In this document: positions 7,272-32,466 of the stretch, in pieces
Numbering within the stretch: position 1 is the stretch's first letter
Layout: every line of letters begins with the position of its first letter
Source: Candidatus Omnitrophota bacterium
Lineage (GTDB): Bacteria > Omnitrophota > Gorgyraeia > Tantalellales > Tantalellaceae
DNA: 64,000 nt
Direction: 5' to 3'
Assembly: GCA_035403965.1 (NCBI GenBank)
Contig: DAONGE010000001.1
Location: forward strand, 85,008 to 149,007
Program-made: the position numbers and the translations under genes
Notes under the pieces: model-generated
The model's database searches: none
Told to the model about the DNA's origin: nothing
The model's input: the letters and a program-made list of their open reading frames with translations, nothing else

Positions 7272-8150
7272 ATGAGCGGAGAGCCGATCCATTTAAAAAA
7301 TACGGCGTTAGCTATAACCGAGCGATGCACCCTCAGGTGTAAATTGTGTTTCGCCTATATACCGTACCATGATAACCCGCAGGATATTACTATTGATGTG
7401 CTCGACACGATTTTACGGCGATATTTTTCTATTGTATCAAGCGTGGATCATTTTTGTGTAACGGGAGGGGAGCCATTAGTGCATCCGCATTTGTGCGCTA
7501 TTTTAAATATGATAAACGGGTATTCGGGACAGATAAACAAAACGATAGACATTATAACCAATGGGACATTGGACATTAAGGATGATGTACTCGGATTTTT
7601 GAAGCAGAACAAAGATAAAACACGTGTTATTATCAGTGACTACGGCAAATATTCTCCTAAAACAAAGACTTTAGAGGAACGATTGCGTTCTTCGGGGATA
7701 ATTGTCAGGATAGAAAGATATGCCGCGGATGATCCGCTTTATGGCGGATGGATAGATTGCAGGGATCATTCTTTGAAACACTTTACGCAGGAAGAAATTG
7801 ACAGACAAGGGAAACACTGTTATTTCAAAAATAAAAGAGGGTATACTATCCGTAAAGGGGAATTGCATAACTGCGGACGGTCATATTGGCGAATGCTGAA
7901 GAATATTATTCCGCGCAATCCGGAGGAATATCTGAATTTGCTGGATATGGAGACGCCGATCGAACATCAGCGCGAAATATTGAGAAAATTGCATAAAAAG
8001 GACAGTGTAACCAGTTGCGCGTATTGTTGGGGAGCGAATGCCCGGAGTAAGAGATATAAGCCGGCCGAACAACTTCCGGCCAAAGTTAATAGATGGTCGA
8101 TAAAATACATAAGAGATCGGTTTTTTTCAAAGTGGCTTAGAACCTGGTAA
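7272..8150 (+). CDS. radical SAM protein, small paralog A (CxxxCxxC near the N-terminus, C-terminal Cys cluster)
   Basis: ITERCTLRCKLC gives the canonical CxxxCxxC motif. GGEPLVHP is the glycine-rich SAM motif. A TNGTL motif is present. Four further Cys are conserved with paralog C (HCYF, HNCGR, SCAYCWGA). A ribosome-binding site AAGGAAG precedes the start. Confidence 0.7.
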   Translation: MSGEPIHLKNTALAITERCTLRCKLCFAYIPYHDNPQDITIDVLDTILRRYFSIVSSVDHFCVTGGEPLVHPHLCAILNMINGYSGQINKTIDIITNGTLDIKDDVLGFLKQNKDKTRVIISDYGKYSPKTKTLEERLRSSGIIVRIERYAADDPLYGGWIDCRDHSLKHFTQEEIDRQGKHCYFKNKRGYTIRKGELHNCGRSYWRMLKNIIPRNPEEYLNLLDMETPIEHQREILRKLHKKDSVTSCAYCWGANARSKRYKPAEQLPAKVNRWSIKYIRDRFFSKWLRTW

Positions 8151-8170
8151 AAAAGGCGAAAAGAGGAAGC

Positions 8171-8836
8171 ATGACAGACGGGCCCTTGCGTTTTAAACAT
8201 ATGGCATTGTGTATAACCGAGCGGTGTACGTTAAAATGTAAACTATGCCATGCGCATATACCGTATCATGATGATCCGCGCGACATGACGCTTGATGAGG
8301 TCGAAACCGTCCTTCATAGGCTTTTTTCGATAATAGAAAGTGTGGACGCTTTTGACATAGCGGGCGGGGAACCTTTGCTTCATCCGGACTTAGCCACTAT
8401 ATTAAAAATCGTTGATAAATATTCCAACCAAATAAACAGGACCATCGATATCACTACTAACGGCACGTTAGAAATGACGGATGAAACCGTTGATTTTTTC
8501 AGGGCCAGAAAAGACCGGACCCGCGTGATAATCAGCGATTACGGCAAATATTCCCCTAAAGCCAGACTATTAGCCGAAAAATTGAGTTCGTTGGGGATAA
8601 ATGTCCGGGTTGACCGTCACTACGGCGATTCCCCGATCTATGGCGGGTGGATAGATGACCGGGATCTTTCGTTGAAATTTTTTACACAACGCGAGATAGA
8701 TGAACACGGAAAAAATTGCTTTTATCGGGAGAAAGGGTGGCCCATAAGGAAAGGCGAGTTGCATAATTGTTCAAGGGGCTACTGGCGAATGCTTAAAAAA
8801 GTTATTCCGCGTAATCCTGTTCGCGGGGTTCAATGA
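8171..8836 (+). CDS. radical SAM protein, small paralog B (C-terminally truncated relative to A and C)
   Basis: ITERCTLKCKLC and GGEPLLHP are present. It is collinear with A and C up to IPRNP, then stops. It lacks the ~55-aa tail that carries the SCAYCxGA pair. It may be a decaying copy. Confidence 0.6.
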   Translation: MTDGPLRFKHMALCITERCTLKCKLCHAHIPYHDDPRDMTLDEVETVLHRLFSIIESVDAFDIAGGEPLLHPDLATILKIVDKYSNQINRTIDITTNGTLEMTDETVDFFRARKDRTRVIISDYGKYSPKARLLAEKLSSLGINVRVDRHYGDSPIYGGWIDDRDLSLKFFTQREIDEHGKNCFYREKGWPIRKGELHNCSRGYWRMLKKVIPRNPVRGVQ

Positions 8837-8879
8837 TAGTGAGATAGGTGTTTAATATCATACTTAAATTTGGGATAGA

Positions 8880-9557
8880 ATGAAGAACAATTCGGTTAAA
8901 TTCGGGTTTTATACGTCAAATCGGGCCACGCGGCTTCGCAAATTTCTTTCAGGCCCGCTTCGCGGGAACTCGATTATTGGAATGGTTTTGCATGACGGGA
9001 TCCCGTCCGATGAGCTTAAAAACTTATGTGATCAGAACGGGATAGACCTTATGGCCGTTGATTACGTTGAGCTTGGTGTTGACAAGAGCCGCCGTAATAA
9101 ATATTTGTCTGATGTTTTATTAGAGCAGCTTGTCGCCCGGGGAGTAGATTATTGTTTTTGTTTTGGGTCATGTATACTGGTCGGGGATCTGTTGCGGGTT
9201 TTTCGTAACAGGATCATCAATTTCCATCCTTCGCTGTTACCGGCGTTCCCCGGCATAAAAGCGGTCGATCAGGCTATTGAATACGGGGCGCGATTTCTGG
9301 GGAATACAGCCCATTTTATAGATGAAGGAGTGGATACCGGGCCCATAATAATGCAGTCCATTATTTCGGCGGAAGCGTTCAGTGGGTATGATTCGGTGCT
9401 TGACCAGCAGTTGCTCATGTTGGCCCAGATCATTAAGTGGTTGGAACAAGGACGGATCGAAGTTAGCGGGAGAAAAGTAAATGTACGCGATGCCGTTTGT
9501 GATGATTTGACCTTTATGCCTAATGTCGAGCCCGATTTGTTACAAAAATTATTGTAG
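8880..9557 (+). CDS. formyltransferase-domain protein (sugar N-formyltransferase-like)
   Basis: INFHPSLLPAFPGIKA and FIDEGVDTGPIIMQ match the catalytic N..H..D signature of the Formyl_trans_N family (PurN/Fmt/ArnA-like). The 225-aa size and glycan-cluster context suggest a sugar formyltransferase. Confidence 0.65.
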   Translation: MKNNSVKFGFYTSNRATRLRKFLSGPLRGNSIIGMVLHDGIPSDELKNLCDQNGIDLMAVDYVELGVDKSRRNKYLSDVLLEQLVARGVDYCFCFGSCILVGDLLRVFRNRIINFHPSLLPAFPGIKAVDQAIEYGARFLGNTAHFIDEGVDTGPIIMQSIISAEAFSGYDSVLDQQLLMLAQIIKWLEQGRIEVSGRKVNVRDAVCDDLTFMPNVEPDLLQKLL

Positions 9558-9603
9558 TCGGGGTAGATCAGACTGACGATGTGTTTTTAGGAGGAACAGA
9601 GAG

Positions 9604-10917
9604 ATGCGGATATTGCTTACCGGACTGATGACAGTGCACTGGGGGAGGCTGGAGAACGGGAATATCGGGAATTACTATATAACCGAAGCCACAATAAGGG
9701 AATTGCACAGGGTTTTTCCGGGAGCCGAGATCGTCACGACCTTTCAAATGTCTGATGAATTCAGCCGCCGGGAAAAAATAAAAGTTTTGCCGATGGATAT
9801 ATTCTATTCATGGAACGAATCGGATCTTGATACATGTTTTAAGGAAATGGGTATCGCCGGGGTCTTTAATTTAGCCGGACACCTGATCGCCTCAACGCCG
9901 TATATCGACGAGGTCATGAAAAGCGACCTTGTTCTGGATTTTAGCGGGGAGATGTGGGGGGATCACGCCGAACCGGTCGGAAAAGACAGGTTTCTGACGG
10001 TTTTAATGAAGGACAGGGTGGCGCAACTTTTAAAAAAACCGGTGGTGCTATTAGCCGGTTCGCAGGGGCCGTTCGATAAAACGGCACATTTGAAGGAGTT
10101 TGCTTCGGCCGTCATAAGTGATTATAAAGCTATTTTGAACAGAGAACCGTCATCGGTCAATGTGCTGAAAGAAAACGGGTTTGATATTAAGAACGTTAAA
10201 AGCTTTACGGATGTGTCTTTTCTTTTTGAGCCCGCGCCTTATGAAGAGATCAAAGAGATCTTAAGGAAGGATTCCATAGTGGCTACGGATAAAAAAACCG
10301 CGGGTTTTATCCTGTGCGGATTCAATATGTTAAGGGGGCCGTATGACGCGGAGCCACGCTCCGACGACGAATTTACGCAGTTCGCGGAGGCGGTGGAGTT
10401 TATAACGGGGGAACTGGGCGCCAGGGTGTTTTTAATGTCGCATCAGAACGGGTTTGTAAAGACCCCGGAATTTAAACTTATCAACGGAAGGGATTATCCT
10501 TACGCGCGGCAATTGTACGATGTCGTGAAAAAAAGGGGGAAAGTGAATATCAGTGACGTGATCCTTGCCAAAGGGCCGTATACGCCTAAGCAGACGATGG
10601 CTATCATCGGCCAGTTCGACATCTTTGTCACGGGCAGGATACACGCGTTTGTGGCAGCGGTTTCGCAAAAAGTCCCGACGGTTATCATCAATAGGGGGCA
10701 TGGGGGAAGGGCGCATCGGAATATAGGGTTTGCGCGAAGCGTCGGCATGGAGGACTATATCGCCGATCCGGCGTCCGCGGACGACTTAAAAACTAGGATC
10801 AAAAAATGCTGGAATAACAGGGAAAAAATAAAAGAGGAATTAAAAAACAGGATCCCGATAGTGAAAGATACCGCCAAAACGATGTTTGATGTTTTAAAAG
10901 AGGCGGTCAGGGTATAG
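9604..10917 (+). CDS. polysaccharide pyruvyl transferase family protein (CsaB/WcaK-like)
   Basis: N-terminal GN.G(N/D) motif (ENGNIGNYYI) and C-terminal TGRIHAFVAAVSQKVPTVII, which resembles the conserved TRLH...G.P motif of pyruvyl transferases. Strong ribosome-binding site AGGAGG. Confidence 0.5.
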   Translation: MRILLTGLMTVHWGRLENGNIGNYYITEATIRELHRVFPGAEIVTTFQMSDEFSRREKIKVLPMDIFYSWNESDLDTCFKEMGIAGVFNLAGHLIASTPYIDEVMKSDLVLDFSGEMWGDHAEPVGKDRFLTVLMKDRVAQLLKKPVVLLAGSQGPFDKTAHLKEFASAVISDYKAILNREPSSVNVLKENGFDIKNVKSFTDVSFLFEPAPYEEIKEILRKDSIVATDKKTAGFILCGFNMLRGPYDAEPRSDDEFTQFAEAVEFITGELGARVFLMSHQNGFVKTPEFKLINGRDYPYARQLYDVVKKRGKVNISDVILAKGPYTPKQTMAIIGQFDIFVTGRIHAFVAAVSQKVPTVIINRGHGGRAHRNIGFARSVGMEDYIADPASADDLKTRIKKCWNNREKIKEELKNRIPIVKDTAKTMFDVLKEAVRV

Positions 10918-10921
10918 AGAT

Positions 10922-11632
10922 ATGAAGATCGCCATTATGCAGCCGTATTTTTTTCCGTATCTGGGATATTTTAGTTTGATAAAACATACGGATCGGTTCA
11001 TCTTGCTGGATGAGGTTCAGTATATTCGTCACGGATGGATCGACAGGAACAGGATACTTAAACCTGGAGGAGGATGGCAGTATATCAAAGTTCCCGTAAG
11101 AAAGCACGCACGGGATACAAGTATCAAAAATATCAGGATCAATAATGATCTCGACTGGAGAACTAAAATGCTGGGGCAATTGCAGCATTATAAAAAGAAT
11201 GCTCCGAATTTCGCCCGGGTGGAAAAGATAATGGAAAAGGTATTGGTGAGTGAATATGATTCTATCGTTCAGCTAAATCTCGCCGGGCTTAAGGCGATCT
11301 GCGAATATTTAAAAATATATCCGGTTTTACAAATATTTTCCGAAGAGAGGTTTGCCATAGACCCCCCTAATGAACCGGATGAATGGGCGTTGAATATATG
11401 CAAAGCGATACCCGGCGTGAAAGAGTATTGGAATCCTCCCGGGGCACGGGATCTGTTCGATAGAAAAAAATATCGCTCCGGCTCGATAGAACTTAGGTTT
11501 CTCGAAAATCGTTTGCGCCGGTATGACCAAAAACGAACGGTTTTTGAGCCGGGTTTATCTATTATAGATGTTTTGATGTTCAATGACCCGGATCATGTAA
11601 ACTTAATGTTGGACGATTTTGTCCTTGATTGA
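10922..11632 (+). CDS. WbqC-like family protein (O-antigen/glycan cluster accessory protein)
   Basis: N-terminus MKIAIMQPYFFPYLGYFSLI...FILLDEVQY...DRNRIL...VPV matches the hallmark WbqC-like family N-terminal signature. Confidence 0.6.
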   Translation: MKIAIMQPYFFPYLGYFSLIKHTDRFILLDEVQYIRHGWIDRNRILKPGGGWQYIKVPVRKHARDTSIKNIRINNDLDWRTKMLGQLQHYKKNAPNFARVEKIMEKVLVSEYDSIVQLNLAGLKAICEYLKIYPVLQIFSEERFAIDPPNEPDEWALNICKAIPGVKEYWNPPGARDLFDRKKYRSGSIELRFLENRLRRYDQKRTVFEPGLSIIDVLMFNDPDHVNLMLDDFVLD

Positions 11633-11688
11633 CGCCGGGATTATTTTAATAATAGCAAGCGGGATAAATTGGAAAAGGTGGAGTAGCT

Positions 11689-12492
11689 ATGGGCATGATA
11701 CAATTGCAACGATCCGCGATAGCCGTAACGCAGCGTTGTACTTTAAGATGCAAGTTGTGTAACGCGTATATGCCGTATTATGTTAAACCGGCGGATATGC
11801 TTTTTGACAAGATAGAAAAAGTCCTGGATAGGTATTTTTTAATCGTGGACAAAGTGGGCATATTCGGCGTGCTGGGAGGGGAACCGTTGTTGCATCCGGA
11901 TATAGCGAAGATCCTGAAAAAAATAAATTCGTATACCGATCAAATTTCCGAACGGATAGATCTGGTGACCAATGGTACGCTGGACATGGATGATGAGACA
12001 TTCGCTTTTTTTGTCGATAACGCGCCAAAGGCCAAGGTCATTATCAGCCACTATGGCAAGCATTCCCCGAAAGCCGATATCCTCGCTAAAAAACTCGAAG
12101 CCCATGGCGCGAATTACAGGGTAGCCGTCTATCACGGAGAGGATCTGTTGTACGGCGGGTGGATAGATTATAGGGATCATTCAAAAAAACATTTTACTCA
12201 GGAGGACATTGATCGGCAGGGGCGGAATTGCATTGTAAGGAAAGGGCAGTATTATCTGATCAGCGAAGGCGAAATGCATACCTGCACAAGGGCGCACTGG
12301 CGCATGCGGCAGGGGATAATTCCCCGTAATGCGGACGAATATTTGAATCTGCTCGACGATACTATATCCGTGGAAAAACAAAGGGAGATTTTGAGCAGGA
12401 TAGACAGCCGGGTTAGCATGACATCTTGTGCTTATTGCGAAGGCGCAAGTAATGAAAGCAAGCGATATCAACCCGCAGAGCAGTTAAAATAA
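11689..12492 (+). CDS. radical SAM protein, small paralog C
   Basis: VTQRCTLRCKLCNAYMPYY (CxxxCxxC), GGEPLLHP and TNGTL are present. The C-terminal Cys (NCIV, HTCTR, SCAYCEGA) and the final KRYQPAEQL are shared with paralog A. Confidence 0.7.
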   Translation: MGMIQLQRSAIAVTQRCTLRCKLCNAYMPYYVKPADMLFDKIEKVLDRYFLIVDKVGIFGVLGGEPLLHPDIAKILKKINSYTDQISERIDLVTNGTLDMDDETFAFFVDNAPKAKVIISHYGKHSPKADILAKKLEAHGANYRVAVYHGEDLLYGGWIDYRDHSKKHFTQEDIDRQGRNCIVRKGQYYLISEGEMHTCTRAHWRMRQGIIPRNADEYLNLLDDTISVEKQREILSRIDSRVSMTSCAYCEGASNESKRYQPAEQLK

Positions 12493-12601
12493 CTCTAAAA
12501 TTTTGAGATATTGATCATTAAATTATGAATAGTGTGTTATGGCAAGGCAAATGCTAATTTGCGATAAATAAACAGATGAATGCGTAAATTTAAAATAGGA
12601 G

Positions 12602-13699
12602 ATGATGGTGAAACAAGAAAATGAGAAGATAAATGTCACCAGAACGTATTTGCCGGATAGGGGGAAATTATCCAAATATATTAATAAGGTATATGATTCC
12701 GGGTGGATAACAAACAATGGAGAGTTTTGTAAAGAACTCGAACTTAGATTAAAGAATTACTTAGGCGTTAGGAACTTAATTCTTGTAGCAAATGGGACTT
12801 TGGCGTTACAGCTTGCGTATAAGGCTTTAGATGTAAAAGAAAAGGCCATAACTACTCCGTTTAGTTTTGTCGCTACGACTAATTCGTTACTATGGGAAAG
12901 GATAGAACCGGTATTTGCCGATATAGATCCGAGGAAATGGACTATTTCTCCGGAACAGATCGAAAAAAACATGACCCCGGAGATTACCGGCATTGTGCCG
13001 GTACATGTGTTCGGGAATGCTTGTGATGTTGAGGATATAAAGAGGATAGCGGACAAAAATGGATTAAAGGTTATTTATGATGCGGCGCATGCTTTTGGGG
13101 TTAAATATAAAGGAAAGTCTTTGTTCGAATGGGGCGATGTTTCCGTTTTGAGTTTCCATGCCACTAAACTTTTTCATACTATAGAGGGAGGCGCTGTTAT
13201 TACGGCGGATGACGAGATCGCCGATAAGATCAGGCTTTTCAGGAATTTTGGCATTACAGGGCAGGAGAGCGTAAAGTGTGTCGGGATAAACGCAAAGATG
13301 AATGAATTTCAGGCCATAATGGGGCTTTGTGTTTTGGATGACATAGAGGAAATAAGTGAGAAAAGAAAGAAAGTTTGGATGAGCTATTATAATAAGTTGA
13401 AGGACATCGTAAACTTACAAGAGATAAATAAAAAAGGGAGTAACAATTATGGTTATTTTCCGATTTTATTTAAAAATGAAACGACAGCAATAAAAGCGCA
13501 GAAAAAACTGAATAATAAAAACATATTTCCAAGAAGATATTTTTATCCTTCCTTAGATACGTTGCCTTATGTTGATCACGGGCCTGAAATGGCCGTATCA
13601 AGAGACGTGGCAAGCCGGGTTTTGTGTTTGCCAATGCATGGGGAGATAACAGAGCAGACGATTGCAGTAGTTTGTAAGGAAATAGAATCCCAGAATTGA
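12602..13699 (+). CDS. DegT/DnrJ/EryC1/StrS-family PLP-dependent sugar aminotransferase
   Basis: Characteristic family layout. The PLP-binding lysine lies in SFHATKLF. Ribosome-binding site TAGGAG. Confidence 0.8.
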   Translation: MMVKQENEKINVTRTYLPDRGKLSKYINKVYDSGWITNNGEFCKELELRLKNYLGVRNLILVANGTLALQLAYKALDVKEKAITTPFSFVATTNSLLWERIEPVFADIDPRKWTISPEQIEKNMTPEITGIVPVHVFGNACDVEDIKRIADKNGLKVIYDAAHAFGVKYKGKSLFEWGDVSVLSFHATKLFHTIEGGAVITADDEIADKIRLFRNFGITGQESVKCVGINAKMNEFQAIMGLCVLDDIEEISEKRKKVWMSYYNKLKDIVNLQEINKKGSNNYGYFPILFKNETTAIKAQKKLNNKNIFPRRYFYPSLDTLPYVDHGPEMAVSRDVASRVLCLPMHGEITEQTIAVVCKEIESQN

Positions 13700-13736
13700 G
13701 GGCGTTGATAACTAGTAGGTATGTTAAAAATATTTT

Positions 13737-14915
13737 TTGTCGTTGTGTCGATCCGGGAAAAATACAAGGGCAGAGGTAATAATAACTCATTTTATGCTGG
13801 AGGGTGGGGGTGTGAATTTTTTTGAACTGTTACTAATGGAGATATTGAACAGTCAATATAACTATTTCACCGATAATTATGACCAGAATAGGTTCGGTCG
13901 AAAATCGTACAGAAGAATGGTTTACGAACAGGTTTTAAGTGTGGTCAATAGTGTCATGCGTTATCTAGGCGTGTATTATTATAGAACCGGTTACAAGAAG
14001 AATATAGGGGCTATAAGAAATATTGGCGGTTATTTTGACGCATTCAATAGTGTGTATGATTTGTTGGAAGATGATTATTCCAAGAAGTTACTTGTTAAGA
14101 TAATCGCCTACAGGATAATGGGCGAAAAAAAGGTTAAACTGCCTTTGAATAACCCGACCTATTGGGATCATATAAAGAAAATTAAGAGCATAGTTTCCAA
14201 AACTGATAAATTGTGTATAGATTTTTTAGGTTGGGAACTTAATAGGATAGATCTCAACCTGTTAAATATTCCGGTTGTCTATTTTTCACGGCCTACCGGG
14301 GCGGCCTTGTTATGGTTTCTGCGGCTCTACCAGGGAGGTCCTGGCAAAACGATAAGAGTGCGTCCGGGAGATGTAGTTATAGACTGCGGCTGTTGCTGGG
14401 GAGATACTGCGCTTAAGTTCGCTTTTGATGCGGGTAGGAAGGGACATATTTACTCTTTTGAAATTAACCAGAAAAACATTGAGGTTGCAACGAGAAATTT
14501 TGAACTTAATCCCGTACTGAAAGCTAACATTCAGCTTATTAATGCTGCGTTGTGGCATGAAAGTGACAAAGAGATTTTAGTCGACGATAATGGTCCGGGG
14601 TCAGCTTTTACGATCAAGAATACAAAGAATAACATTGTTGCAAAAACTCTAACGATCGATGATTTTGTCGAGCGATGGAATATTAGACAGGTGAATTTTA
14701 TAAAAATGGATATTGAAGGTGCGGAATTGAAGGCCCTGGAAGGTGCAAAAAAAACCATCCAGAAATTTAAGCCTAAATTGGCGATATCTCTTTATCATAC
14801 TTTGGATGATTTTGTAAATATTCCCAAGTTTGTAAAAGAAGTGAATAAAGACTATAAATTATACGTAGAACATTTTTCTATCCACAGAGAAGAAACTGTT
14901 CTTTTTGCAGGTTAA
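13737..14915 (+). CDS. FkbM-family methyltransferase
   Basis: VIDCGCCWGDTALKFA is the SAM-binding motif and FIKMDIEGAELKALEGA is the conserved FkbM/Methyltransf_21 block. The start is uncertain: 13737 is TTG, and ATG alternatives lie at 13794 and 13836. Confidence 0.6.
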   Translation: MSLCRSGKNTRAEVIITHFMLEGGGVNFFELLLMEILNSQYNYFTDNYDQNRFGRKSYRRMVYEQVLSVVNSVMRYLGVYYYRTGYKKNIGAIRNIGGYFDAFNSVYDLLEDDYSKKLLVKIIAYRIMGEKKVKLPLNNPTYWDHIKKIKSIVSKTDKLCIDFLGWELNRIDLNLLNIPVVYFSRPTGAALLWFLRLYQGGPGKTIRVRPGDVVIDCGCCWGDTALKFAFDAGRKGHIYSFEINQKNIEVATRNFELNPVLKANIQLINAALWHESDKEILVDDNGPGSAFTIKNTKNNIVAKTLTIDDFVERWNIRQVNFIKMDIEGAELKALEGAKKTIQKFKPKLAISLYHTLDDFVNIPKFVKEVNKDYKLYVEHFSIHREETVLFAG

Positions 14916-14970
14916 TGGTAGACTGGCTATTCTGTTGCTATGGGGTGTAGTGTCATTGCGAAGGGAAAAT

Positions 14971-17924: not shown

Positions 17925-17993
17925 TTAATTTGGTACATCCGAAGAGTTTTGGATCCCGGCGTATGTAAAAAAAGATAAGGGGAAAGAAGATAT

Positions 17994-18677: not shown

Positions 18678-18735
18678 TGAAATTTTAAGATTACGGCGGG
18701 AACTTATTGAATGTAACAATAAGGAGAGGGGCAAA

Positions 18736-18897: not shown

Positions 18898-18986
18898 ATA
18901 CCGTCCCAAATGTGTTATCGTGGAACATTCCGATCTATGTGGAATCAGGGAAGTGTTTAAAGAGGAAGAGTAAACATACCTTGAAA

Positions 18987-19118: not shown

Positions 19119-19143
19119 GGAAAGCAGACAGAGGGCATGGTTC

Positions 19144-24101: not shown

Positions 24102-24104
24102 TAT

Positions 24105-25040
24105 ATGTATAAACGCGACGCAATGTCGGATATCCTGAAAAAAACCGATATAAAACCGGTTCTTTTTGATGTCGGGGCGGCAGGTGGCACTCCGCATATT
24201 TGGAAAAAGATAGCAAAACGATCGGTGTATGTCGGTTTTGATCCGGACGCGAGAGAGATCAAAGAAATATCCGACGGGGCGTTCTATAAGTCCATCATAA
24301 TAAATAAAGCTGTTTCCGCCGAAGTTAAACAAAAAACATCCTTTTATTTAACGAAATACCCGTATTGTTCCAGTACTTTGGAGCCGGATTCCGCCGCGCT
24401 GGATAATTATGGTTTTGCCGATTATTTTAAAGTTTTAGGTAAGGCCGAAGTCGGATCCGTCACATTGAATGAAGTGATAAAAGAGATATCGCTTGGCGGT
24501 ATAGATTGGCTGAAGATCGACACGCAGGGCACGGATCTCAGGATATTCAAAAGTCTCAACGACGAGACGAGAGAAAAGGTATTGGCTCTTGACGTGGAGC
24601 CCGGACTGATAGACGCTTACAAGGGAGAGGATCTTTTTACGGCCACGCATGAGTATCTTACGAAGAACGGGTTTTGGCTGTCGGATATGCGTATAGGTAA
24701 AACCGTACGCATTAAACGGACCTCGGTCAATCATATGGAGTCTCCGGATAAAGCGGTATTAAATATTCAGAAGAATGTCAAAGCCTCTCCGGCATGGTGT
24801 GAAGCCAGATATTTGCGGACATTGGATCGGTTATCATTAAATCGGCCGGATAAACGGTCGTATATCCTTTTGTGGATATTCGCGATGTTGGATGGCCAGT
24901 TCGGTTTCGCGTTCGATGTTGTATGCGAATATGGGAAGTTTTTCGGGGAAGACGGGGAATATATGCACATGAAAAAGAATGTTCTTTCCGCCCTGAACAT
25001 AGGGATCGGCAGAAGATTCCTTAACATGTTGCGTAAATAA
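24105..25040 (+). CDS. FkbM-family methyltransferase, second copy
   Basis: LFDVGAAGGT is motif I and IDWLKIDTQGTDLRIFKSL is the FkbM conserved block. Ribosome-binding site GAGGTGA. Confidence 0.55.
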   Translation: MYKRDAMSDILKKTDIKPVLFDVGAAGGTPHIWKKIAKRSVYVGFDPDAREIKEISDGAFYKSIIINKAVSAEVKQKTSFYLTKYPYCSSTLEPDSAALDNYGFADYFKVLGKAEVGSVTLNEVIKEISLGGIDWLKIDTQGTDLRIFKSLNDETREKVLALDVEPGLIDAYKGEDLFTATHEYLTKNGFWLSDMRIGKTVRIKRTSVNHMESPDKAVLNIQKNVKASPAWCEARYLRTLDRLSLNRPDKRSYILLWIFAMLDGQFGFAFDVVCEYGKFFGEDGEYMHMKKNVLSALNIGIGRRFLNMLRK

Positions 25041-25067
25041 GAGTATATCCGATAAGAGGAGAAACTT

Positions 25068-26054
25068 ATGGCCAAAGAAACGTTCCGGGACAGTAAGGTT
25101 GTTATTACCGGTGGATTAGGTTTTATAGGATCGAATCTCGCCCGTACCCTGGTGAATATGGGCGCGCGAGTTTTTATTATAGACAGCCTTATCCCCGAGT
25201 ATGGAGGCAACCTGTTCAACATAAAAGGCATAGAGGATAAGGTGACCGTAAATATATCGGATGTGCGTGACGAGCATAGCATGAAATATCTGATACAGGG
25301 GCATGATTATCTTTTTAATCTCGCAGGGCAGACAAGCCATATGGATTCCATGAGTGATCCGTATGTCGATTTGGAGATAAACGCAAAAGCGCAGTTGTCC
25401 ATTCTGGAAGCATGCCGTAAGTATAATTCTAAAATAAAAATAGTTTTCGCCAGTACGAGGCAATTATACGGGAAACCGCAGTATTTGCCGGTGGATGAGA
25501 AGCATCCGGTCAATCCGGTGGATGTTAACGGGATAAATAAATTGTCGGGGGAGATGTACCATATCTTATATAACAATGTTTATGGGATTCGTTCTACGGT
25601 ATTGAGACTTACGAATACCATCGGGCCGTGCATGCGTATAAAAGACGCGCGCCAGACGTTCTTGGGTATATGGGTAAAAATGCTGGTTGAGGGGAAGCCT
25701 TTTGAGGTGTGGGGCGGGGAACAGCTCCGTGATTTCACTTATGTAGATGACGCCGTCAATGCGTTCGTGACCGCCGCGTCGGACAAACGATCGGACGGAA
25801 AAATTTTCAATATAGGAGGGGACAAGGTAATTAAATTGAAAGTACTCGCGGATCTTTGTATCAAGGCCAACGGTGGAGGGAAATATGTCATAAAAGATTT
25901 TCCTGAAGAGAGGCGATCTATCGATATAGGGGACTATTACTCTGATGACGGCCTTTTTAGAAAAACTTTCGGCTGGAAGCCCGGAGTCTCTCTGGGCGAG
26001 GGACTGAAACGGATAATCGCGTATTATAAGGAACATATAGTGAAATATGTTTAG
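25068..26054 (+). CDS. NAD-dependent nucleotide-sugar epimerase/dehydratase (short-chain dehydrogenase/reductase family)
   Basis: VVITGGLGFIGSNLARTL is the Rossmann motif, and an extended-SDR layout with a YxxxK region is present. 328 aa. Confidence 0.8.
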   Translation: MAKETFRDSKVVITGGLGFIGSNLARTLVNMGARVFIIDSLIPEYGGNLFNIKGIEDKVTVNISDVRDEHSMKYLIQGHDYLFNLAGQTSHMDSMSDPYVDLEINAKAQLSILEACRKYNSKIKIVFASTRQLYGKPQYLPVDEKHPVNPVDVNGINKLSGEMYHILYNNVYGIRSTVLRLTNTIGPCMRIKDARQTFLGIWVKMLVEGKPFEVWGGEQLRDFTYVDDAVNAFVTAASDKRSDGKIFNIGGDKVIKLKVLADLCIKANGGGKYVIKDFPEERRSIDIGDYYSDDGLFRKTFGWKPGVSLGEGLKRIIAYYKEHIVKYV

Positions 26055-26072
26055 TTTCGACAGGATGGTTTT

Positions 26073-27683
26073 ATGAGCATGAAAAGATGCATGAAAGAAA
26101 ATATTATCGCCGTGATGTTTTTTACGGTGTTTTTTTTAGCCGTTCTTTTCGGCGCGAAAGTATATTTTTCCGGTTTTCATCTTACAGACGATTTTAAAAC
26201 ACTGAACATTATCTCGGGATTCAGGGAGCAACCATTCTTTAAGGAGATGGCCAAGCAGATATCTGAAAACACGAGCAGACGGTTTAATCCGCTTAACAGC
26301 GTTCAGTATGTGGTCAGGGCGAAATTGTTCGGGGATAATTTTTCTTTATGGTTTTTAAGCCAGATATTTATTTTTGTGCCGACATGTTTTTTCCTTTACG
26401 GATTCGCCAGGAAGATAGGGGCTACGTTCTGGCAATCCGTGTTTTTCCCGTTCTTTACTTTGTTGGGGCAGCAGATGCTGACATGGTGGATGCTTTGTAC
26501 CGCCGAACCGATCGCGATGTTCTTTGTGTCTTTAGCCATGTACCTGATGGCGAAGGCGTCACAACGGGAAGGGGATATCCTCTCTGTAACCGGTTTTGTT
26601 GTCAGCATAGCGTTGAGCACGTTATGTAAAGAAAGTTTCATATTGTTCATTCCGGCCGCGGTGGTTATGTGGTGGGCGCTTTTGTGCTACGGTAAGATGA
26701 AACCTGACATGGCGAACATTTTTTTTAAAGCGTTGTTACCGTCGGTTACGCTTTTGATCGTTATGCTGTTCGATCTATGGGTGATATTATATGTCGTAAA
26801 GACCACGACTGAAGGATATAACGGTATCGACGGGCAAATGCCCTTGATAGGGTTATTGAAAGACCCGCATATGTTCTTAATGCGGCTTAAGGTGGATATA
26901 TGGGTGCTTTTAGACATGTATACTTTCGGGGTGATATTATTCGGTATTTTTTTAATAATGAATGCTTTGTCGGAGAAAAAAGACGAATTTCTGCGGATCA
27001 TTCGCAAAATGTCTTTATTCGGGTTTGTTTTCGCGATGATATTTATTCCGCAGGTTATTCTCTATGATAAATCTGGAATGCAAACAAGGTATTGGTTGCC
27101 GGCGTTTTTGGCTTTTTCTATAGCGGCCGTATATCTATTAAAAACCATATCGAAATCGAAAGAAATCTCTTTTTTCGGGAAACGGGTCTTTTTGGTGTTG
27201 ATCATCATCGCGTTTATACCGCGTGTTGAGCACGCGGTCTCGAGAGCGAAGGATTTCGCGTCCGAAGGTTTAGCGACACGGGATCTATTTCGGGCGGTTC
27301 TGTCGGGGGATATACATGATCCTAAGATACTGGTTGTCGGGGATCCTATCGTAAATTATGAATGGTCGGTAGCCCTAGTGAAATATTTCAGTTTTTACGG
27401 GGATGTGAAAAAAATAAGTTTTTTTGAGGTGGGTACCGATCGCGGCGCCGAACTCAGACCGGACTTTGTGGAAATGGTGTCGAAATCATTCCGGGAAGTG
27501 TTCGGGAACAATACGGTTAAAACGGTGAACAAAGGAGATTATGATTTTATTATCATAATGCCTAACGCCGAGAGCGGTTTTGCGCCGGTTGCTCGGAATG
27601 CCGATATATTTGCGCAGTACAAGAGAAGCGGATATTTTTGGGGAAGGGGCGAGTTCGTTCTTTACTCGAGAACGGTTAAATAG
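26073..27683 (+). CDS. polytopic membrane protein, putative GT-C-type glycosyltransferase/polymerase (paralog 1)
   Basis: About 11 predicted TM helices plus a ~150-aa C-terminal soluble domain. It is a paralog of 30883-32466 (shared FSGFHL, WQSVFF..FTLLGQQ, RYWLPAFLAFS). Function is inferred only from architecture. Confidence 0.45.
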   Translation: MSMKRCMKENIIAVMFFTVFFLAVLFGAKVYFSGFHLTDDFKTLNIISGFREQPFFKEMAKQISENTSRRFNPLNSVQYVVRAKLFGDNFSLWFLSQIFIFVPTCFFLYGFARKIGATFWQSVFFPFFTLLGQQMLTWWMLCTAEPIAMFFVSLAMYLMAKASQREGDILSVTGFVVSIALSTLCKESFILFIPAAVVMWWALLCYGKMKPDMANIFFKALLPSVTLLIVMLFDLWVILYVVKTTTEGYNGIDGQMPLIGLLKDPHMFLMRLKVDIWVLLDMYTFGVILFGIFLIMNALSEKKDEFLRIIRKMSLFGFVFAMIFIPQVILYDKSGMQTRYWLPAFLAFSIAAVYLLKTISKSKEISFFGKRVFLVLIIIAFIPRVEHAVSRAKDFASEGLATRDLFRAVLSGDIHDPKILVVGDPIVNYEWSVALVKYFSFYGDVKKISFFEVGTDRGAELRPDFVEMVSKSFREVFGNNTVKTVNKGDYDFIIIMPNAESGFAPVARNADIFAQYKRSGYFWGRGEFVLYSRTVK

Positions 27684-27695
27684 CGGGAGAGGATA

Positions 27696-28802
27696 ATGGC
27701 AAAAAAAATACCTCAATGCGATCCGAAAGCCAACTACCTTTTTTACAGGGAAGAGATAGAAAAGGCTATAAAAAGGGTATTAGAGGCCGGCAGATATATA
27801 CTGGGCGGGGAAGTGGAAAAATTTGAAAAGGACTTCTCTTCCTACATAGAGGTCAAATACGGGATAGGGGTTGGTAGTGGCACGGATGCCATTCAATTGG
27901 CTCTTCGGACATTGGCTATAGGGCAGGGAGACGAGGTTATTACCGTATCGCATACCGCGGTAGCGACTGTGGCGGCTATCGAACTCGCCGGAGCGTTACC
28001 GGTGCTTGTCGACGTAGATCCCGTAACATATACGATGGATCTTGATATGATGGAAAAAGCGGTCACGTCCCGGACTAAGGCTATAATCCCGGTACATCTG
28101 TATGGTCATCCCGTGGAAATGGATCGTGTAATGGCTTTTGCCCGTCGTAATGGGCTGAAGGTGATTGAGGATTGCGCTCAATCTCACGGAGCGGTCTATA
28201 AAAATAAAAAAACCGGATCGTTCGGGGATATGTCCGCGTTCAGTTTTTATCCCACGAAAAATCTTGGGGCGATAGGCGATGCGGGGATGCTGATCACGGA
28301 TGATAAAACGCTGGCCGAAAAAGCGAAAGCGTTGCGTGAATATGGATGGGAAGAAAGATATATAAGCAGTATTCCCGGCTTGAATACAAGATTGGATGCG
28401 ATACAGGCCGCCATTTTAGGGGTAAAATTGCGGGGGCTTGATAACGATAATAAAAAACGGCGGAATATATCCGAGGTATATAATTCCGGATTATCCGGAT
28501 CAGATATTATATTGCCGGTTCAGAAAAAAGACAGCATTCATGTTTATCATCAGTATGTCGTTCGCGTAAAAGACAGGGATAAAGTGCGGGAATCTCTTAA
28601 GACGGAAGGTATAGATACTTTGATACATTATCCCGTTCCGGTACATCTGCAGCCGGCCTATTTTAAAAGAATAAAATATTTCGGAAAAATGAACGCGACG
28701 GAAAAAATATGCTCCGAAATATTGAGCCTGCCGATATATCCGGAACTCTCTTTGGATGAGGCCGGAACAGTGTGCGATGTAATTAGGAAAAAACTGAAAT
28801 GA
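27696..28802 (+). CDS. DegT/DnrJ/EryC1/StrS-family PLP-dependent sugar aminotransferase, second copy
   Basis: Family-typical layout. The PLP lysine lies in [10 protein letters not shown]. Confidence 0.8.
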
Positions 28803-30808
28803 GACATTTTTGTACATATTTTGACTCAAACTATTTGTCCAAAGGGATCGCTTTGTACAGATCCCTTAAGCGGTTCGCGTCGCCTTTCATACTTTGGGTC
28901 TTATGTTTTGATGACCTGGCATACAGGATATTGAAAGAACTGGATTTGCCGGGAGTGAAACCCGTTTCCCTGACGGATTTCGAGCGGGAGAACAAAGAGC
29001 TTTCCGATATTAAAAATTCCAGGACGAAGATAGAATATTATTTCACCTGTTCGCCTTTCTGGCCGGCATATGTATTCAAAAAAGATGAAAGTGTAGATCT
29101 GTTAACGTATGTTGACGCCGATCTTTTCTTTTTTTCCGATGTAACCCCGATATTCAAAGAATTGGGGAATAATTCGATTTTGATCATTGAACATCGGTTC
29201 CCCAAATGGCGGACTGGAATGGATAAGTTCGGCAAGTATAATGTCAGCATTCTTTGCTTCAGGAGGGACGATATCGGGTTTAGATGCCTCAAATGGTGGC
29301 AGGAGAGGTGTATAGAATGGTGCCATGATAGAGTGGAAGACGGGAAATTTGCCGACCAAAAATATCTGGATGATTGGTGTGAAAGGTTCGGGAGGGTAAC
29401 TGTTCTTCGGCATAAAGGTGCAGGACTGGCTCCGTGGAACGTGATGAATTATGAATTATCGGAATGGCACGGGGAAGTGTTCATAGATGATATTCCGCTT
29501 ATTTTTTTTCATTTTCACCGCCTTGAGGAAATAAAGCAGGGGGTTTATGCTACCGGGCTTGAGATGTACAATGCCCATAAAAATGGAGTACTGCGGAAAC
29601 ATATTTACTTACCGTACGTGACTGAATTAGACCGTATCTCGGCCTATCTGAACGAAAAGGCAGCTCATAGAGACGAAGATATACGGAGTAAGACTATCCG
29701 GTCATGGGATAAGGATTGGAAGATGGATGCTGGTGCAATTAAGTGGATGATCCAATATATGATGGGGAGACTGTTCGGATGGTTCGTGTCTGTGAAAAGG
29801 GGAGGGAAACCATTCGATATTATTGAGGATGAAATGACTTTCGCCGATAATTTGCCAGGAAAATCGAGCGAGAAAGAACATCGCAAAATTTTAAAAGTTG
29901 GATATAGATTTAAAATCCGGTCTGAATACAACATGGATGTTATATCTAAACACGATACGCGATATCCGAGAATGTCCGTGATCATGCCGACTTATAACCA
30001 GGGTGCTTTTATTGAAAGAGCCATACTAAGCATTCTTAATCAGAATTATCCAAATTTGGAATTTATTATTATCGATGGTGGGTCTACGGATGATACGATC
30101 AATATCATAAAAAAATATGAACGATATATTTCGTACTGGCAAAGTAAACCTGATAACGGTCAGGCGGATGCTATCAATCAGGGGCTTGCGAAGGCCACCG
30201 GGGTATATGTGTCATGGCTTAATTCGGATGATTTTTATTTAAGCGGTGTTTTGAAAAATGTGGCGGGCTTTTTTGAGAAAAGCGGAGCTGATATAGTGCA
30301 CGCCAATGAGTATGTGGTAGATACGAAAGATATGATAATAGGGGAAAATAGGGGGCTGCCTTTCCCGGAAATGATGGGTTTAGCGTTTTTCATATATGGT
30401 GGATATTGGACGTTCCAGACCACTATGTTCTGGAAAAAGGAACTTCATGATAAGTACGGGTTTTTGGACACCAAGTATAATTTTGCTTTAGATCTCGAAC
30501 TTTTTTCGCGTTTCGCCGTTAACGGTGCGAAGTTTAGATATATGAACCAGCATGTGGCAGGCTTTAGGTATCATGCGTTTTCAAAGAATTGTACATTGCA
30601 GGAGGTCAGAGCTCGGGAACGTAAAATAATAATGATGGAGTACGGCAAATATATCCCGCGTATTTTTCGAAATAAGTTTTTAATGGGCAAATTGAGCGAG
30701 TTGTATTTTTTGCGACATTTCTTTATTGGTAATGCCGATTTTGAATTGTCGGAAATCGCCAAAAAAACAGGGTTAATAAAACGTCATCCGATAATACCGT
30801 ATAAGTAA
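28799..30808 (+). CDS. two-domain glycosyltransferase (N-terminal nucleotide-sugar-transferase-like domain plus C-terminal GT2 domain)
   Basis: The C-terminal half has [24 protein letters not shown]...[12 protein letters not shown] (GT2). The N-terminal half has a DxD-like motif DADLFFFSD and a nucleotide-diphospho-sugar-transferase-like pattern. Confidence 0.65.
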
Positions 30809-30882
30809 CGGGAAGGATAAAAGTTGTTTGTGATATAGAATCCCGGGCGGGATGTATCCCGGGGGCAAAGTGAGGAGGTACT

Positions 30883-32466
30883 GTGCGAGGACATGTTAGA
30901 GTGATTTTATTATTTGCGGCGTATTTTTTGATATTCTTTATCTCCACGAAATTTCTGTTCTCCGGTTTTCATCTTTATGATTATCCAAAATTCGGTTTTG
31001 TTGAGAGTTTGAACAAAAAAGGTCTTGTGAAAACGATTGATGAACGCATAGGGATAACATTAAAGGCTCGATTTGTGCCTATGCGGGAGATCGATATGAC
31101 TTTAAGATCCTGGTTTTTCGGGCTGGTCCCGTACAGGTACTATCTTTATATGTGTTTTCTGCTTGTATTGTGCAGTTTTCTTTTATATCGGTTTGCAGAA
31201 ACGATAGGGTTTACCAGATGGCAGTCTGTATTTTTTGCGCTTTTTACACTGACAGGACAGCAGGCTGAATGTTGGTGGTGGATGGGGACTGCCGAGCTTA
31301 TGGGGATGGTATTCCTAAGTATTGCGTTTTATGCGCTTGCAATGGCTGCTAGGACGCGACAGAAGATGCTATTTGACATGATTTTTATGGTTGGGTTAAT
31401 AGGAGGGTCTTTCTCGAAAGAGAGTTTTATTATTGTGATCCCGGCGGTTCTTTTTTTAAAGATATGGATCGATGCGTATCTTAACGAGAAAAGTTTTTTA
31501 AAGGCGTTTTTCGGAAATATTTTGCCGGTGATATTAATGATGTCCCTTATGGTATGGGAAGTTACATATATCTTACGGCATATCGGGACAAAGAGCGAGC
31601 TTTTGGCCACGGTGAATATCGAGGTCGGCACCGGGGTTGTTAAAACTTTGATTAACATGCTTAGGAATTTCAACCTTTCGTTTTTTGTGCTACTGGAGAC
31701 TGTTACGTTTTTTGTGATCATTTTTGGCTGTTTTCTTATATTGCAGGCGTCTTATGACGGGCATAGACTTTGGCATGATGCAAAAAGAAAAGTGATGCCG
31801 CTTATTTTATTCTTTCTTCTGTTTGTTGTGCCGCAATTTATAATGTATAGCGGGACGGGGATACGCCAAAGATGGTGGCTTCCGGCTTTTCTGGCTTTTT
31901 CATTTGCCGTCACATATTTACTCAGAGAGATCATCGTGAACCGTGGCATAAACAAGTTCACAAAAGTATTATTTATCATGCTTGTGGTAATGGTGGCTTT
32001 GCCGCGGCTTGGGCACGCATATTTCCGGGGCAGCATTGTGGCGGAAAGAGGGCTGCAAAACAACGCAATGATAGCCGCGATCACCGCACATACGTCGGTC
32101 GATTCGAACATCGTTATAGTCGGCGACCCGGTTATGAACGCTGAAGCAATGGGGGGCGGGGTTCCGGCCTTTTTAAAGAATATAGCGCATAGGGATAATT
32201 GCTATTTTATTTTGATCGATACGGGACGTATATTCCATACTGCCGAGATAACGGAATGTTTGAGGCGGAACAGTAAAACAGAATTAAAGAACAGAGATAT
32301 TACAAATGATGTCCCGCAGGGATTTCAGACCGACAGTGTTTTTGTGTTTCCATATATTGAAGATGCTTTCCTCCGCGTGTCGTCAGGATGGTTCCATAAA
32401 GAGGAATATGAGCGCGTTGTTTTTAAACATTTTGATGGGGATTTTGTTTGTTACTTTAAAAAATAG
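30883..32466 (+). CDS. polytopic membrane protein, putative GT-C-type glycosyltransferase/polymerase (paralog 2)
   Basis: GTG start with a GAGGAGG ribosome-binding site. Same architecture and conserved blocks as 26073-27683. Confidence 0.45.
   Translation: MRGHVRVILLFAAYFLIFFISTKFLFSGFHLYDYPKFGFVESLNKKGLVKTIDERIGITLKARFVPMREIDMTLRSWFFGLVPYRYYLYMCFLLVLCSFLLYRFAETIGFTRWQSVFFALFTLTGQQAECWWWMGTAELMGMVFLSIAFYALAMAARTRQKMLFDMIFMVGLIGGSFSKESFIIVIPAVLFLKIWIDAYLNEKSFLKAFFGNILPVILMMSLMVWEVTYILRHIGTKSELLATVNIEVGTGVVKTLINMLRNFNLSFFVLLETVTFFVIIFGCFLILQASYDGHRLWHDAKRKVMPLILFFLLFVVPQFIMYSGTGIRQRWWLPAFLAFSFAVTYLLREIIVNRGINKFTKVLFIMLVVMVALPRLGHAYFRGSIVAERGLQNNAMIAAITAHTSVDSNIVIVGDPVMNAEAMGGGVPAFLKNIAHRDNCYFILIDTGRIFHTAEITECLRRNSKTELKNRDITNDVPQGFQTDSVFVFPYIEDAFLRVSSGWFHKEEYERVVFKHFDGDFVCYFKK

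Follow-up and report, generated by a model that had tools for sequence, protein, structure and literature searches.

A predicted surface glycan biosynthesis island with BtrN/SpeY-like twitch radical SAM proteins in an uncultured Candidatus Omnitrophota bacterium

Introduction

What kind of product is made by a sugar locus that encodes five radical S-adenosylmethionine (SAM) enzymes? This question is raised by a gene island of an uncultured Candidatus Omnitrophota bacterium, located at positions 7272-32466 (~25 kb) of a stretch of 64,000 nucleotides from contig DAONGE010000001.1 (assembly GCA_035403965.1, positions 85,008 to 149,007 of the forward strand), which is referred to as the window in the following. 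The original prediction for this DNA had proposed a heavily C-methylated, N-formylated and pyruvylated amino-sugar polymer, exported by an MsbA-like ATP-binding cassette (ABC) exporter together with two polytopic membrane proteins and linked to a neighbouring PEP-CTERM protein. We assigned domains with Pfam and NCBIfam to the open reading frames (ORFs) of the window, and folds with AlphaFold (AF2) models that were searched with Foldseek against the PDB. The profile searches upheld nearly every domain call, including those of the radical SAM proteins, and also the general picture of a glycan cluster with amino-sugar, N-acyl, pyruvyl and methyl tailoring functions, but lead to a different reading of tailoring and export. 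We consider it probable, at roughly 0.6, that the region serves the biosynthesis of a cell-surface glycan and consists of three modules, with an assembly that relies on a flippase and on glycosyltransferases of the GT-C fold.

The island comprises 21 co-directional ORFs on the plus strand (221-669 aa; ORF listing), which are mostly separated by short gaps and, as had been noticed, overlap with their start and stop codons in five cases (14905/14915, 20583/20586, 21640/21668, 22542/22545 and 28799/28802). We propose to divide it as follows. Module 1 (7272-15930) would represent a sugar-tailoring cassette that recurs across many strict anaerobes, with one to three BtrN/SpeY-like twitch radical SAM proteins, a pyruvyl transferase, a WbqC protein, a DesI-like aminotransferase, an N-acyltransferase, an FkbM methyltransferase and a family 2 glycosyltransferase (GT2). 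Module 2 (16131-24101) would combine a PglK/MsbA-type ABC flippase with two B12-domain radical SAM proteins, two methyltransferase-like proteins and a CgeB-like glycosyltransferase. Module 3 (24105-32466) would be a cassette of FkbM methyltransferase, Asn-type short-chain dehydrogenase/reductase (SDR) and DegT aminotransferase, interleaved with a two-domain glycosyltransferase and two GT-C proteins. The same island is present in independent ENA, JGI and Logan assemblies, digester samples such as JGI 3300010352 being a source, identical proteins deposited from Candidatus Omnitrophota metagenome-assembled genomes (MAGs) bear generic names, and a related Omnitrophota contig retains module 1 with variations.

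The small radical SAM proteins

Pfam and NCBIfam agree with the earlier count of three small (292, 221 and 267 aa) and two B12-binding radical SAM proteins. The small ones are close paralogs with 50-61% mutual identity, encoded at 7272-8150 (paralog 1, 292 aa, Cys-type with a GGWID-C-RD loop; Radical_SAM E 9e-11; 53-60% identity to the other two), 8171-8836 (paralog 2, 221 aa, C-terminally truncated in the alignment with its paralogs) and 11689-12492 (paralog 3, 267 aa, an aromatic-type core copy). For paralog 3, the AF2 model built from 30 sequences (pLDDT 94.5) retrieved SpeY as the best PDB fold over the full length (E 2e-13, TMq 0.71-0.77), followed by BtrN and then by MoaA, BlsE, anSME and EpeE. 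SpeY is also the best match by sequence, with 15-19% identity to enzymes of the BtrN/SpeY/HygY kind. The CX3CX2C motif (C17, C21 and C24 in the numbering of paralog 3) is kept by 214 family sequences out of 218, with gaps at this place in the remaining four, and is complemented by four further near-invariant cysteines (C181, C199, C247 and C250); all seven are kept in 214-218 of the 218 sequences, the rest again being gaps. Four cysteines hold the auxiliary cluster of BtrN, which catalyses a two-electron alcohol oxidation (PMC9012708). The four C-terminal cysteines of the family match this fully cysteine-ligated auxiliary cluster.

NCBIfam matches of the small proteins, to MoaA and many maturases for peptides of ribosomal origin that are modified after translation (RiPPs), cover the first ~100 residues only and lie far below every cut-off, so that these proteins belong to no curated family. 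Judged by the model, they are predicted to be BtrN/SpeY-like twitch carbohydrate enzymes of the dehydrogenase or epimerase type and not methylases. In consequence, heavy C-methylation of the product, as postulated originally, is left as one option only; among the larger radical SAM proteins, too, the second has the diol dehydratase AprD4 as its nearest relative. The likeness to BtrN, SpeY and HygY comprises the size of ~250-300 aa, the CX3CX2C motif, the four-cysteine C-terminal twitch region, the full-length fold match to SpeY and BtrN, and the genomic pairing with a DegT-family aminotransferase; BtrN, too, is paired with its own aminotransferase. Unlike these enzymes, which share the low identity given above, the proteins described here occur in envelope-type glycan loci of anaerobes, as tandem paralogs and linked to pyruvyl transferases.

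The three copies are not equivalent. Paralog 2 ends after the sequence IPRNP, so that the two most C-terminal of the four auxiliary-cluster cysteines are missing; two independent assemblies (L001, L002) show an identical truncation, and this copy is probably impaired. Furthermore, the variable residue of the GGWID-x-RD motif is C, D and Y in the three proteins of the window. Loci of the type A layout (see below) with several copies have Cys at this position in one copy and Phe or Tyr in another, and such a pair of a Cys-type beside an aromatic-type copy recurs in six further loci (L005, L011, L016, L017, L020, L023). In HygY, a cysteine acting as hydrogen donor (Cys183) makes the enzyme an epimerase, and the exchange C183A is reported to turn it into a dehydrogenase. 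By analogy, epimerisation may be the task of the Cys-type copy and oxidation that of the aromatic type.

A twitch family linked to pyruvyl transferases in anaerobes

An exhaustive profile search (E <= 1e-30) gave 1,105 representatives of the twitch family, clustered at 50% identity and in most cases 260-290 aa long, while a word-indexed search for relatives recovered 38 only. Scanning one genome per species, we found 27 loci of this family, and every named host is an anaerobe: Lachnoclostridium phytofermentans KNHs2131, Kineothrix alysoides, Roseburia, Faecalimonas, Faecalibacterium, Flavonifractor, Anaerovorax, Marinisporobacter, Anaerobacterium and Ruminiclostridium. Besides, the family occurs in MAGs of Spirochaetaceae, Synergistaceae and Dysgonamonadaceae.

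A tblastn search with the window proteins placed a pyruvyl transferase homolog at most 10 kb from the twitch gene in 22 of 29 independent loci, compared with a chance expectation of ~1% according to our own rough estimate. Two layouts can be distinguished. Type A consists of pyruvyl transferase, WbqC and one to three twitch genes, usually together with a DegT aminotransferase and an N-acyltransferase (formyltransferase or GNAT); DegT adjoins the twitch module in 10 of these loci. Type B has no DegT; its one to three twitch genes are accompanied by a pyruvyl transferase, a hexapeptide transferase and an iron-sulfur flavoprotein of the FrhB kind. The number of tandem twitch paralogs is generally one to three per locus, but reaches four to five. 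In addition, twitch domains occur in natural fusions (PS_pyruv_trans-rSAM, FrhB-rSAM, GNAT-rSAM, rSAM-GT2 and tandem rSAM-rSAM, rSAM denoting the radical SAM part), as in P0052 (pyruvyl transferase-rSAM), P0095, P0196, P0071, P0173 and P0182, some of which could be gene-calling artefacts. Synteny and fusions thus tie this uncurated twitch family to pyruvyl transferases.

A compact example is the operon of L. phytofermentans KNHs2131, in which pyruvyl transferase, WbqC, GNAT, twitch radical SAM protein, GT2, DegT and methyltransferases follow one another in this order, and no SDR is present; its twitch gene occupies 9989-10792 of locus L013. Likewise, tblastn detected no homolog of the window SDR within 10 kb of the twitch genes in any of the 27 genome loci. 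A keto-forming role of the twitch enzyme on behalf of the aminotransferase would fit this pattern, because no SDR is found nearby and DegT is adjacent. In type B loci, re-reduction of the keto group made by the twitch enzyme could fall to the FrhB-like reductase. In Clostridia, the module adjoins cell-wall or flagellar glycosyltransferases. Flagellin genes are found at a distance of a few kb from twitch modules in L007 and L036, and likewise near a GT-C homolog in L041, which hints at flagellin glycosylation in some carriers.

To our knowledge, all characterised twitch radical SAM enzymes acting on carbohydrates belong to aminoglycoside antibiotic pathways, and our literature searches returned nothing relevant on WbqC, on pyruvyl transferases combined with radical SAM, on twitch enzymes combined with polysaccharides or on Omnitrophota combined with radical SAM. 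The island directs attention to a sizeable and uncurated sister family in the surface glycan loci of strict anaerobes, among them cultured Lachnospiraceae and further Clostridia as well as common genera of the human gut. If such enzymes indeed provide keto, amino or epimerised sugars without O2 and without the 4,6-dehydratase route, this would explain anaerobe sugars beyond the standard pathway rules and would give new tools for predicting glycans from genomes. With Lachnoclostridium phytofermentans KNHs2131, Kineothrix alysoides and Marinisporobacter balticus, cultured carriers exist in which the family is directly testable.

The other enzymes of module 1

The twitch genes are interspersed with the partners that define the type A layout, and most assignments of the original prediction were recovered here (Formyl_trans_N, PS_pyruv_trans, WbqC and GT2 as well as the two DegT and two FkbM proteins of the island). 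The formyltransferase (8880-9557, 225 aa) resembles the N10-formyl-tetrahydrofolate-dependent PurN (Formyl_trans_N, PF00551, 79.5 bits): its best PDB match is PurN 2ywr with 99.6 bits, compared with 23-42 bits for sugar formyltransferases, and the PurN equivalog score is 81.9 versus a cut-off of 150. The motifs NFHPSLLP and DTGPI, in the region of the catalytic Asn-His-Asp motif, align with PurN. In other loci, a GNAT or hexapeptide acyltransferase fills this slot.

The adjacent gene at 9604-10917 encodes a member of the polysaccharide pyruvyl transferase family with 437 aa (PS_pyruv_trans 85.6 bits over the full length; CsaB 54.8). With CsaB and WcaK it has the full-length PF04230 match in common. 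It differs in scoring well below both cut-offs, and its subfamily adjoins WbqC and twitch genes and occasionally forms fusions with twitch proteins. Directly downstream lies the WbqC family protein (10922-11632, 236 aa; PF08889 221 bits), for which the PDB sequence search gave no match; WbqC adjoins the pyruvyl transferase in type A loci. DegT aminotransferase 1 (12602-13699) is DesI-like (PF01041 311 bits; DesI 283 bits, below the cut-off) and has its pyridoxal phosphate lysine within SFHATK; this lysine is kept in both DegT proteins of the island. The module is completed by FkbM methyltransferase 1 (13737-14915; Methyltransf_21 69.6 bits at residues 216-369), which has an N-terminal extension of ~200 aa, and by a GT2 glycosyltransferase (14905-15930; Glycos_transf_2 79 bits) without a transmembrane segment in the hydropathy scan.

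Flippase and radical tailoring enzymes of module 2

For the protein at 16131-17924, the assumption of an MsbA-like ABC exporter holds as far as the architecture is concerned, since ABC_membrane and ABC_tran domains form a half-transporter. However, its best match is PglK, which flips lipid-linked oligosaccharides: PglK scores 336.5 bits (cut-off 1000), ahead of HepA (285) and MsbA (278), all three below their cut-offs, and is the best of 188 ABC families. By sequence, the protein is predicted to be a flippase type for lipid-linked sugars and not a polymer exporter.

The two larger radical SAM proteins belong to class B, with an N-terminal B12-binding domain (PF02310) and a radical SAM core (PF04055). 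The first one (19144-20586; B12-binding 67.6 and Radical_SAM 81.8 bits) has 9ccb, OxsB, TokK and AprD4 as nearest PDB sequences, the second (22542-24101; 49.8 and 79.9 bits) the diol dehydratase AprD4 (6fd2). Architecture and PDB sequence matches are thus shared with characterised class B enzymes (C-methylases of the TokK/GenK type, OxsB, AprD4). In contrast to these, the island proteins reach no curated family, all NCBIfam matches being below the cut-off. Since the PDB neighbours include the methylase TokK, OxsB and the dehydratase AprD4, methylation is not the sole candidate reaction, and methylation, dehydration or rearrangement may be considered. Five radical SAM proteins in one sugar locus are uncommon, as had been remarked, but the situation recurs in anaerobes (L040, L033, L035, L038).

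Two proteins of this module had been taken as weaker methyltransferase-like candidates, which agrees with our matches: one of 227 aa (17994-18677) carries the motif FEYGAGGST and finds PDB entry 3cvo, annotated as 'methyltransferase-like', with E 8e-5, with no Pfam or NCBIfam match, and the other (21640-22545) is TIGR04325-like with 58.9 bits at a cut-off of 80. A CgeB-like glycosyltransferase, expected from the earlier reading, is encoded at 20583-21668 (Glyco_trans_1_2, PF13524, 126 bits).

The island has two longer intergenic gaps, one of 200 nt in front of the ABC gene and another of 466 nt (18678-19143) in front of the first B12-domain protein. Within the 466-nt gap, an uncertain ORF of 53 aa (18736-18897; size range 53-75 aa) begins with an ATG at 18736 that is preceded by a strong Shine-Dalgarno sequence (AAGGAGAGG), which accounts for the 22nd gene counted originally. 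A permissive Rfam scan including cobalamin and SAM riboswitches gave no match in this gap, and across the whole window no riboswitch of either type was detected, a tRNA-Ser being the sole match. No pseudogene remnants were found when the intergenic gaps were compared with the island proteins by blastx.

Module 3: a second amino-sugar cassette and two GT-C proteins

Module 3 starts with FkbM methyltransferase 2 (24105-25040; Methyltransf_21 33.5 bits) and an extended SDR (25068-26054; Epimerase 155 bits). The latter had been read as an epimerase/dehydratase. Although fold and GxxGxxG motif are kept, the alignment with GalE (4zrm) reveals Asn in place of the catalytic Tyr (NGINK), and the Tyr-x-x-x-Lys signature is thus absent. 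The substitution characterises a large subfamily with ~70% identity and members in cyanobacteria, Desulfobacterales and Omnitrophota, and Asn is present in 120 of the 120 best homologs. In a Microcoleus genome (L042) and a Desulfobacterales MAG (L043), the order methyltransferase-SDR-DegT is found, with FkbM one gene further upstream in the former. In the light of these two loci, FkbM2-SDR-(GT-C)-DegT2 looks like a second conserved cassette. Its aminotransferase (DegT 2, 27696-28802) is PseC/ArnB-like (PF01041 393 bits; PseC 234 and ArnB 213 bits, both below the cut-offs).

The 669-aa glycosyltransferase at 28799-30808 had been described as a two-domain GT2. One GT2 domain (residues 393-518) is indeed present in the C-terminal part, whereas the N-terminal 380 aa gave neither a hidden Markov model nor a PDB sequence match; this N-terminal part carries a DxD-like YVDADLFFF.

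The reading of the two polytopic membrane proteins changes, too. They are paralogs, as stated before (26073-27683 with 536 aa and 30883-32466 with 527 aa; 30% identity over 528 aa), each with ~9-11 transmembrane segments and ~140 aa of soluble sequence at the C-terminus, and a PDB sequence search found nothing. However, an AF2 model of the first (pLDDT 82.8) retrieved in Foldseek exclusively GT-C enzymes among the top 26 PDB matches (E down to 4.5e-5), namely STT3, DPY19, ArnT, AglB, PglB, AftA, Pmt4 and AftB, which points to glycosyltransferases instead of exporters. Relatives are few (n=13), and PMT_2 was matched by one of the 13, the others having no Pfam match. Residues S33, G34, H36 and D39 (SGFHLTDD; SG.H..D) are invariant in the 13 homologs and are located directly after the first transmembrane segment. 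GT-C enzymes have a catalytic acidic residue in the first extracytoplasmic loop, which would be the place of this motif. Fold and SG.H..D motif together therefore lead us to predict periplasm-facing transferases with polyprenyl-linked donors and not exporters; on the model, the donor would be a polyprenyl-phosphate-linked sugar. Elsewhere, a GT-C homolog occurs in an arrangement of GT2, small EamA-like protein and GT-C (L039), and a Deltaproteobacteria MAG (L040, GCA_016234925.1) has a radical-SAM-rich glycan locus of its own, in which two tandem GT-C homologs are flanked by four radical SAM/SPASM proteins, a pair of B12-radical SAM proteins, one GT2 and a flippase of the Wzx-like type.

Proposed pathway

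From the domain identities, folds, paralogy, synteny and fusions described above, we infer substrates, order of steps and acceptor as follows. The aromatic-type twitch enzyme (11689-12492) would abstract a hydrogen from a sugar C-H and transfer the second electron onto the auxiliary cluster with its four cysteines, yielding a keto sugar without O2 and without 4,6-dehydration. Aminotransferase and formyltransferase would convert the keto sugar into an N-formyl amino sugar, on which the pyruvyl transferase would put a pyruvate ketal. At least two unusual amino sugars would be made in this way, one by the twitch/pyruvyl module (N-formylated and pyruvylated) and one by the Asn-SDR/DegT cassette, and the FkbM, TIGR04325-like and B12-domain enzymes may add further methylation or deoxygenation. 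In the cytoplasm, the GT2, CgeB-like and two-domain transferases would load the sugars on a polyprenyl-phosphate carrier, the PglK-type ABC protein would flip the lipid-linked intermediate, and the two GT-C paralogs would transfer it on the periplasmic face to an acceptor encoded elsewhere, which may be a glycan, lipid A-core or a protein. As GT-C donor, we slightly favour a single sugar on polyprenyl monophosphate in the style of ArnT, PMT or Gtr over a diphosphate oligosaccharide in the style of PglB, because of the PMT_2 relationship and the layout of locus L039.

Several observations weigh against this pathway. Type B loci have no aminotransferase, hence coupling of the twitch enzyme to transamination is not obligatory. 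The fold matches of the GT-C model have moderate TM-scores (TMq 0.43-0.50). Neither GT2 has transmembrane helices according to hydropathy, whereas such helices are typical of polyprenyl-phosphate sugar synthases like ArnC and GtrB. A priming phosphoglycosyltransferase, a ligase and a polymerase were not found among the scanned window ORFs of at least 100 aa. Finally, sequence alone assigns no reaction to the radical SAM proteins, WbqC or the pyruvyl transferase.

The same scan of the 64 kb agrees with the earlier statement that no Wzx, Wzy, initiating phosphoglycosyltransferase or nucleotidyltransferase is visible; Polysacc_synt, Wzy_C/O-antigen ligase and ABC2_membrane also remained without match, so that neither a Wzx/Wzy nor a Wzm/Wzt locus is recognisable. 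A PglK-type flippase together with two divergent GT-C transferases and no Wzx/Wzy represents an under-described assembly layout. It resembles the pgl system of Campylobacter jejuni (PglK, PglB, PglDEF) in the PglK-matched ABC protein, the combination of SDR, DegT and N-acyltransferase, the cytoplasmic glycosyltransferases and the predicted use of GT-C after flipping. In contrast to pgl, the island is devoid of a PglC-type priming enzyme, its GT-C proteins do not belong to the PglB/STT3 family and its PglK score is 336 versus a cut-off of 1000, and pgl itself has no radical SAM, pyruvyl or methyl tailoring. The Arn and Gtr systems are mirrored as well, with DegT, formyltransferase, SDR, GT2, flippase and GT-C as counterparts of ArnB/A/C/EF/T. 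Yet the scores are low (ArnA 20.5 and 49.8 bits versus 777, ArnB 213 versus 631), no ArnC is among the matches listed, ArnT is reached at the level of the fold only, the island GT2 has no transmembrane helices, an ABC flippase replaces ArnE/F or GtrA, and two GT-C paralogs are present.

A more far-reaching idea, which we regard as improbable, is that twitch enzyme and pyruvyl transferase form a new device of anaerobes, in which the radical enzyme would go beyond oxidising a hydroxyl-bearing carbon: a sugar radical would be used with the enolpyruvyl or pyruvyl group and give branched or higher-carbon acidic sugars that are new to surface glycans, one step per tandem paralog. Conceivable chemistry would be C-C bond formation of the PolH/NikJ type, where enolpyruvyl-UMP is used, or radical decarboxylation or rearrangement of the ketal.

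Alternative explanations

The exosortase-type exopolysaccharide (EPS) hypothesis, that is, the heavily C-methylated, formylated and pyruvylated polymer exported via ABC and membrane proteins and tied to PEP-CTERM, profits from a genuine PEP-CTERM protein 90 nt downstream of the island, as in loci where such a protein stands beside polysaccharide genes, and from two B12-domain radical SAM proteins that could be C-methylases. Nevertheless, the PEP-CTERM gene is convergent, and among the scanned ORFs neither the island nor its surroundings yielded an exosortase, Wza/Wzc-like or EpsH gene, so that a comparison with PEP-CTERM EPS loci reveals neither the exosortase nor the usual EPS export genes. 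Considering also the GT-C fold of the membrane proteins, the PglK/MsbA type of the ABC protein and the small radical SAM proteins, which are not methylases, we judge this explanation unlikely. Somewhat more credit, although still on the doubtful side, is given to a protein glycosylation island, in which the PglK-like ABC protein flips an oligosaccharide and one or both GT-C enzymes attach this to a protein of the surface (flagellin, pilin, S-layer or PEP-CTERM) as in Campylobacter pgl or actinobacterial PMT. STT3, PglB, AglB and Pmt4 among the GT-C fold matches, PglK as best ABC match and the flagellin genes near twitch-module relatives (L007, L036) and near a GT-C homolog (L041) would suit it. 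The GT-C proteins, on the other hand, show no WWDYG-type motif and no large periplasmic domain as in PglB/STT3, but a soluble C-terminal part of ~140 aa; PMT_2 is the sole Pfam match in their homologs (1/13), and the neighbouring PEP-CTERM protein is not enriched in sequons.

The origin of the nearest characterised relatives (BtrN, SpeY, AprD4, TokK/GenK-type, DesI, FkbM) from antibiotic pathways suggests a secondary-metabolite cluster for an aminoglycoside-like pseudo-oligosaccharide with an efflux pump. We find this very unlikely in view of a cluster that holds no cyclitol synthase or other scaffold gene, of the two GT-C proteins, GT2/CgeB-like transferases and pyruvyl transferase, which point to lipid-linked surface glycans, and of the clostridial modules next to cell-wall or flagellar glycosyltransferases. 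There is least room for the view that the small radical SAM proteins mature RiPP peptides or are cofactor enzymes of the MoaA kind, with sugar genes as chance neighbours: the partial NCBIfam matches to such families in the first ~100 residues reflect the shared radical SAM core, far below the cut-offs, while the full-length fold is that of SpeY and BtrN, fusions and tight synteny connect the proteins with sugar enzymes, and no precursor peptide is evident. Thus, a surface glycan cluster with flippase and GT-C assembly remains our preferred reading of the island.

Neighbouring genes and further features of the window

Upstream, the island is bounded by a tRNA-Ser(tga) gene with a strong terminator (6481-6570, plus strand), which is outside the pathway. 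The leader of 700 nt between this tRNA and the first gene (6571-7271) contains a 63-nt element twice (6731-6793 and 6950-7012). The two copies are 89% identical with an identical core of 37 nt, are spaced by 219 nt and occur nowhere else in the window; each folds as a hairpin with 20-nt arms that are 80% complementary (RNA minimum free energy -34.9 kcal/mol, z -3.2).

Downstream follow the convergent PEP-CTERM gene, a Pif1-like helicase and a glycine cleavage operon. The PEP-CTERM protein of 170 aa (32557-33069, minus strand; PF07589 21.3 bits, cut-off 20.7) has a signal peptide, an S/T/N-rich composition and a PEP..TM..RRKK tail. No exosortase was found among the scanned ORFs of the window, and the link between this protein and the glycan, which had been part of the original prediction, comes down to adjacency; that the gene belongs to the island is unsupported. 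N-glycosylation of this protein was considered and rejected, as N-x-S/T sequons are not above the expectation from composition (P = 0.21).

Further away, a protein of 1,841 aa (42333-47858) shows a weak match to the starch-synthase catalytic domain (PF08323) only, and fits the 'giant protein, sugar-metabolism module' described for Omnitrophota (preprint 10.64898/2026.06.07.730766). Two paralogous Ala/Lys/Glu-rich secreted proteins (58270-60096 and 60218-61975; 608 and 585 aa) have near-identical C-terminal tails, no Pfam match and a strongly purine-rich coding strand (AT skew ~0.4); they are preceded by a FecR-like protein and followed by a BBP2_2 beta-barrel porin (61998-63161). Throughout the window, the GC skew is positive (0.08-0.29) and the plus strand carries almost every long gene, which is consistent with the leading strand of one replichore.

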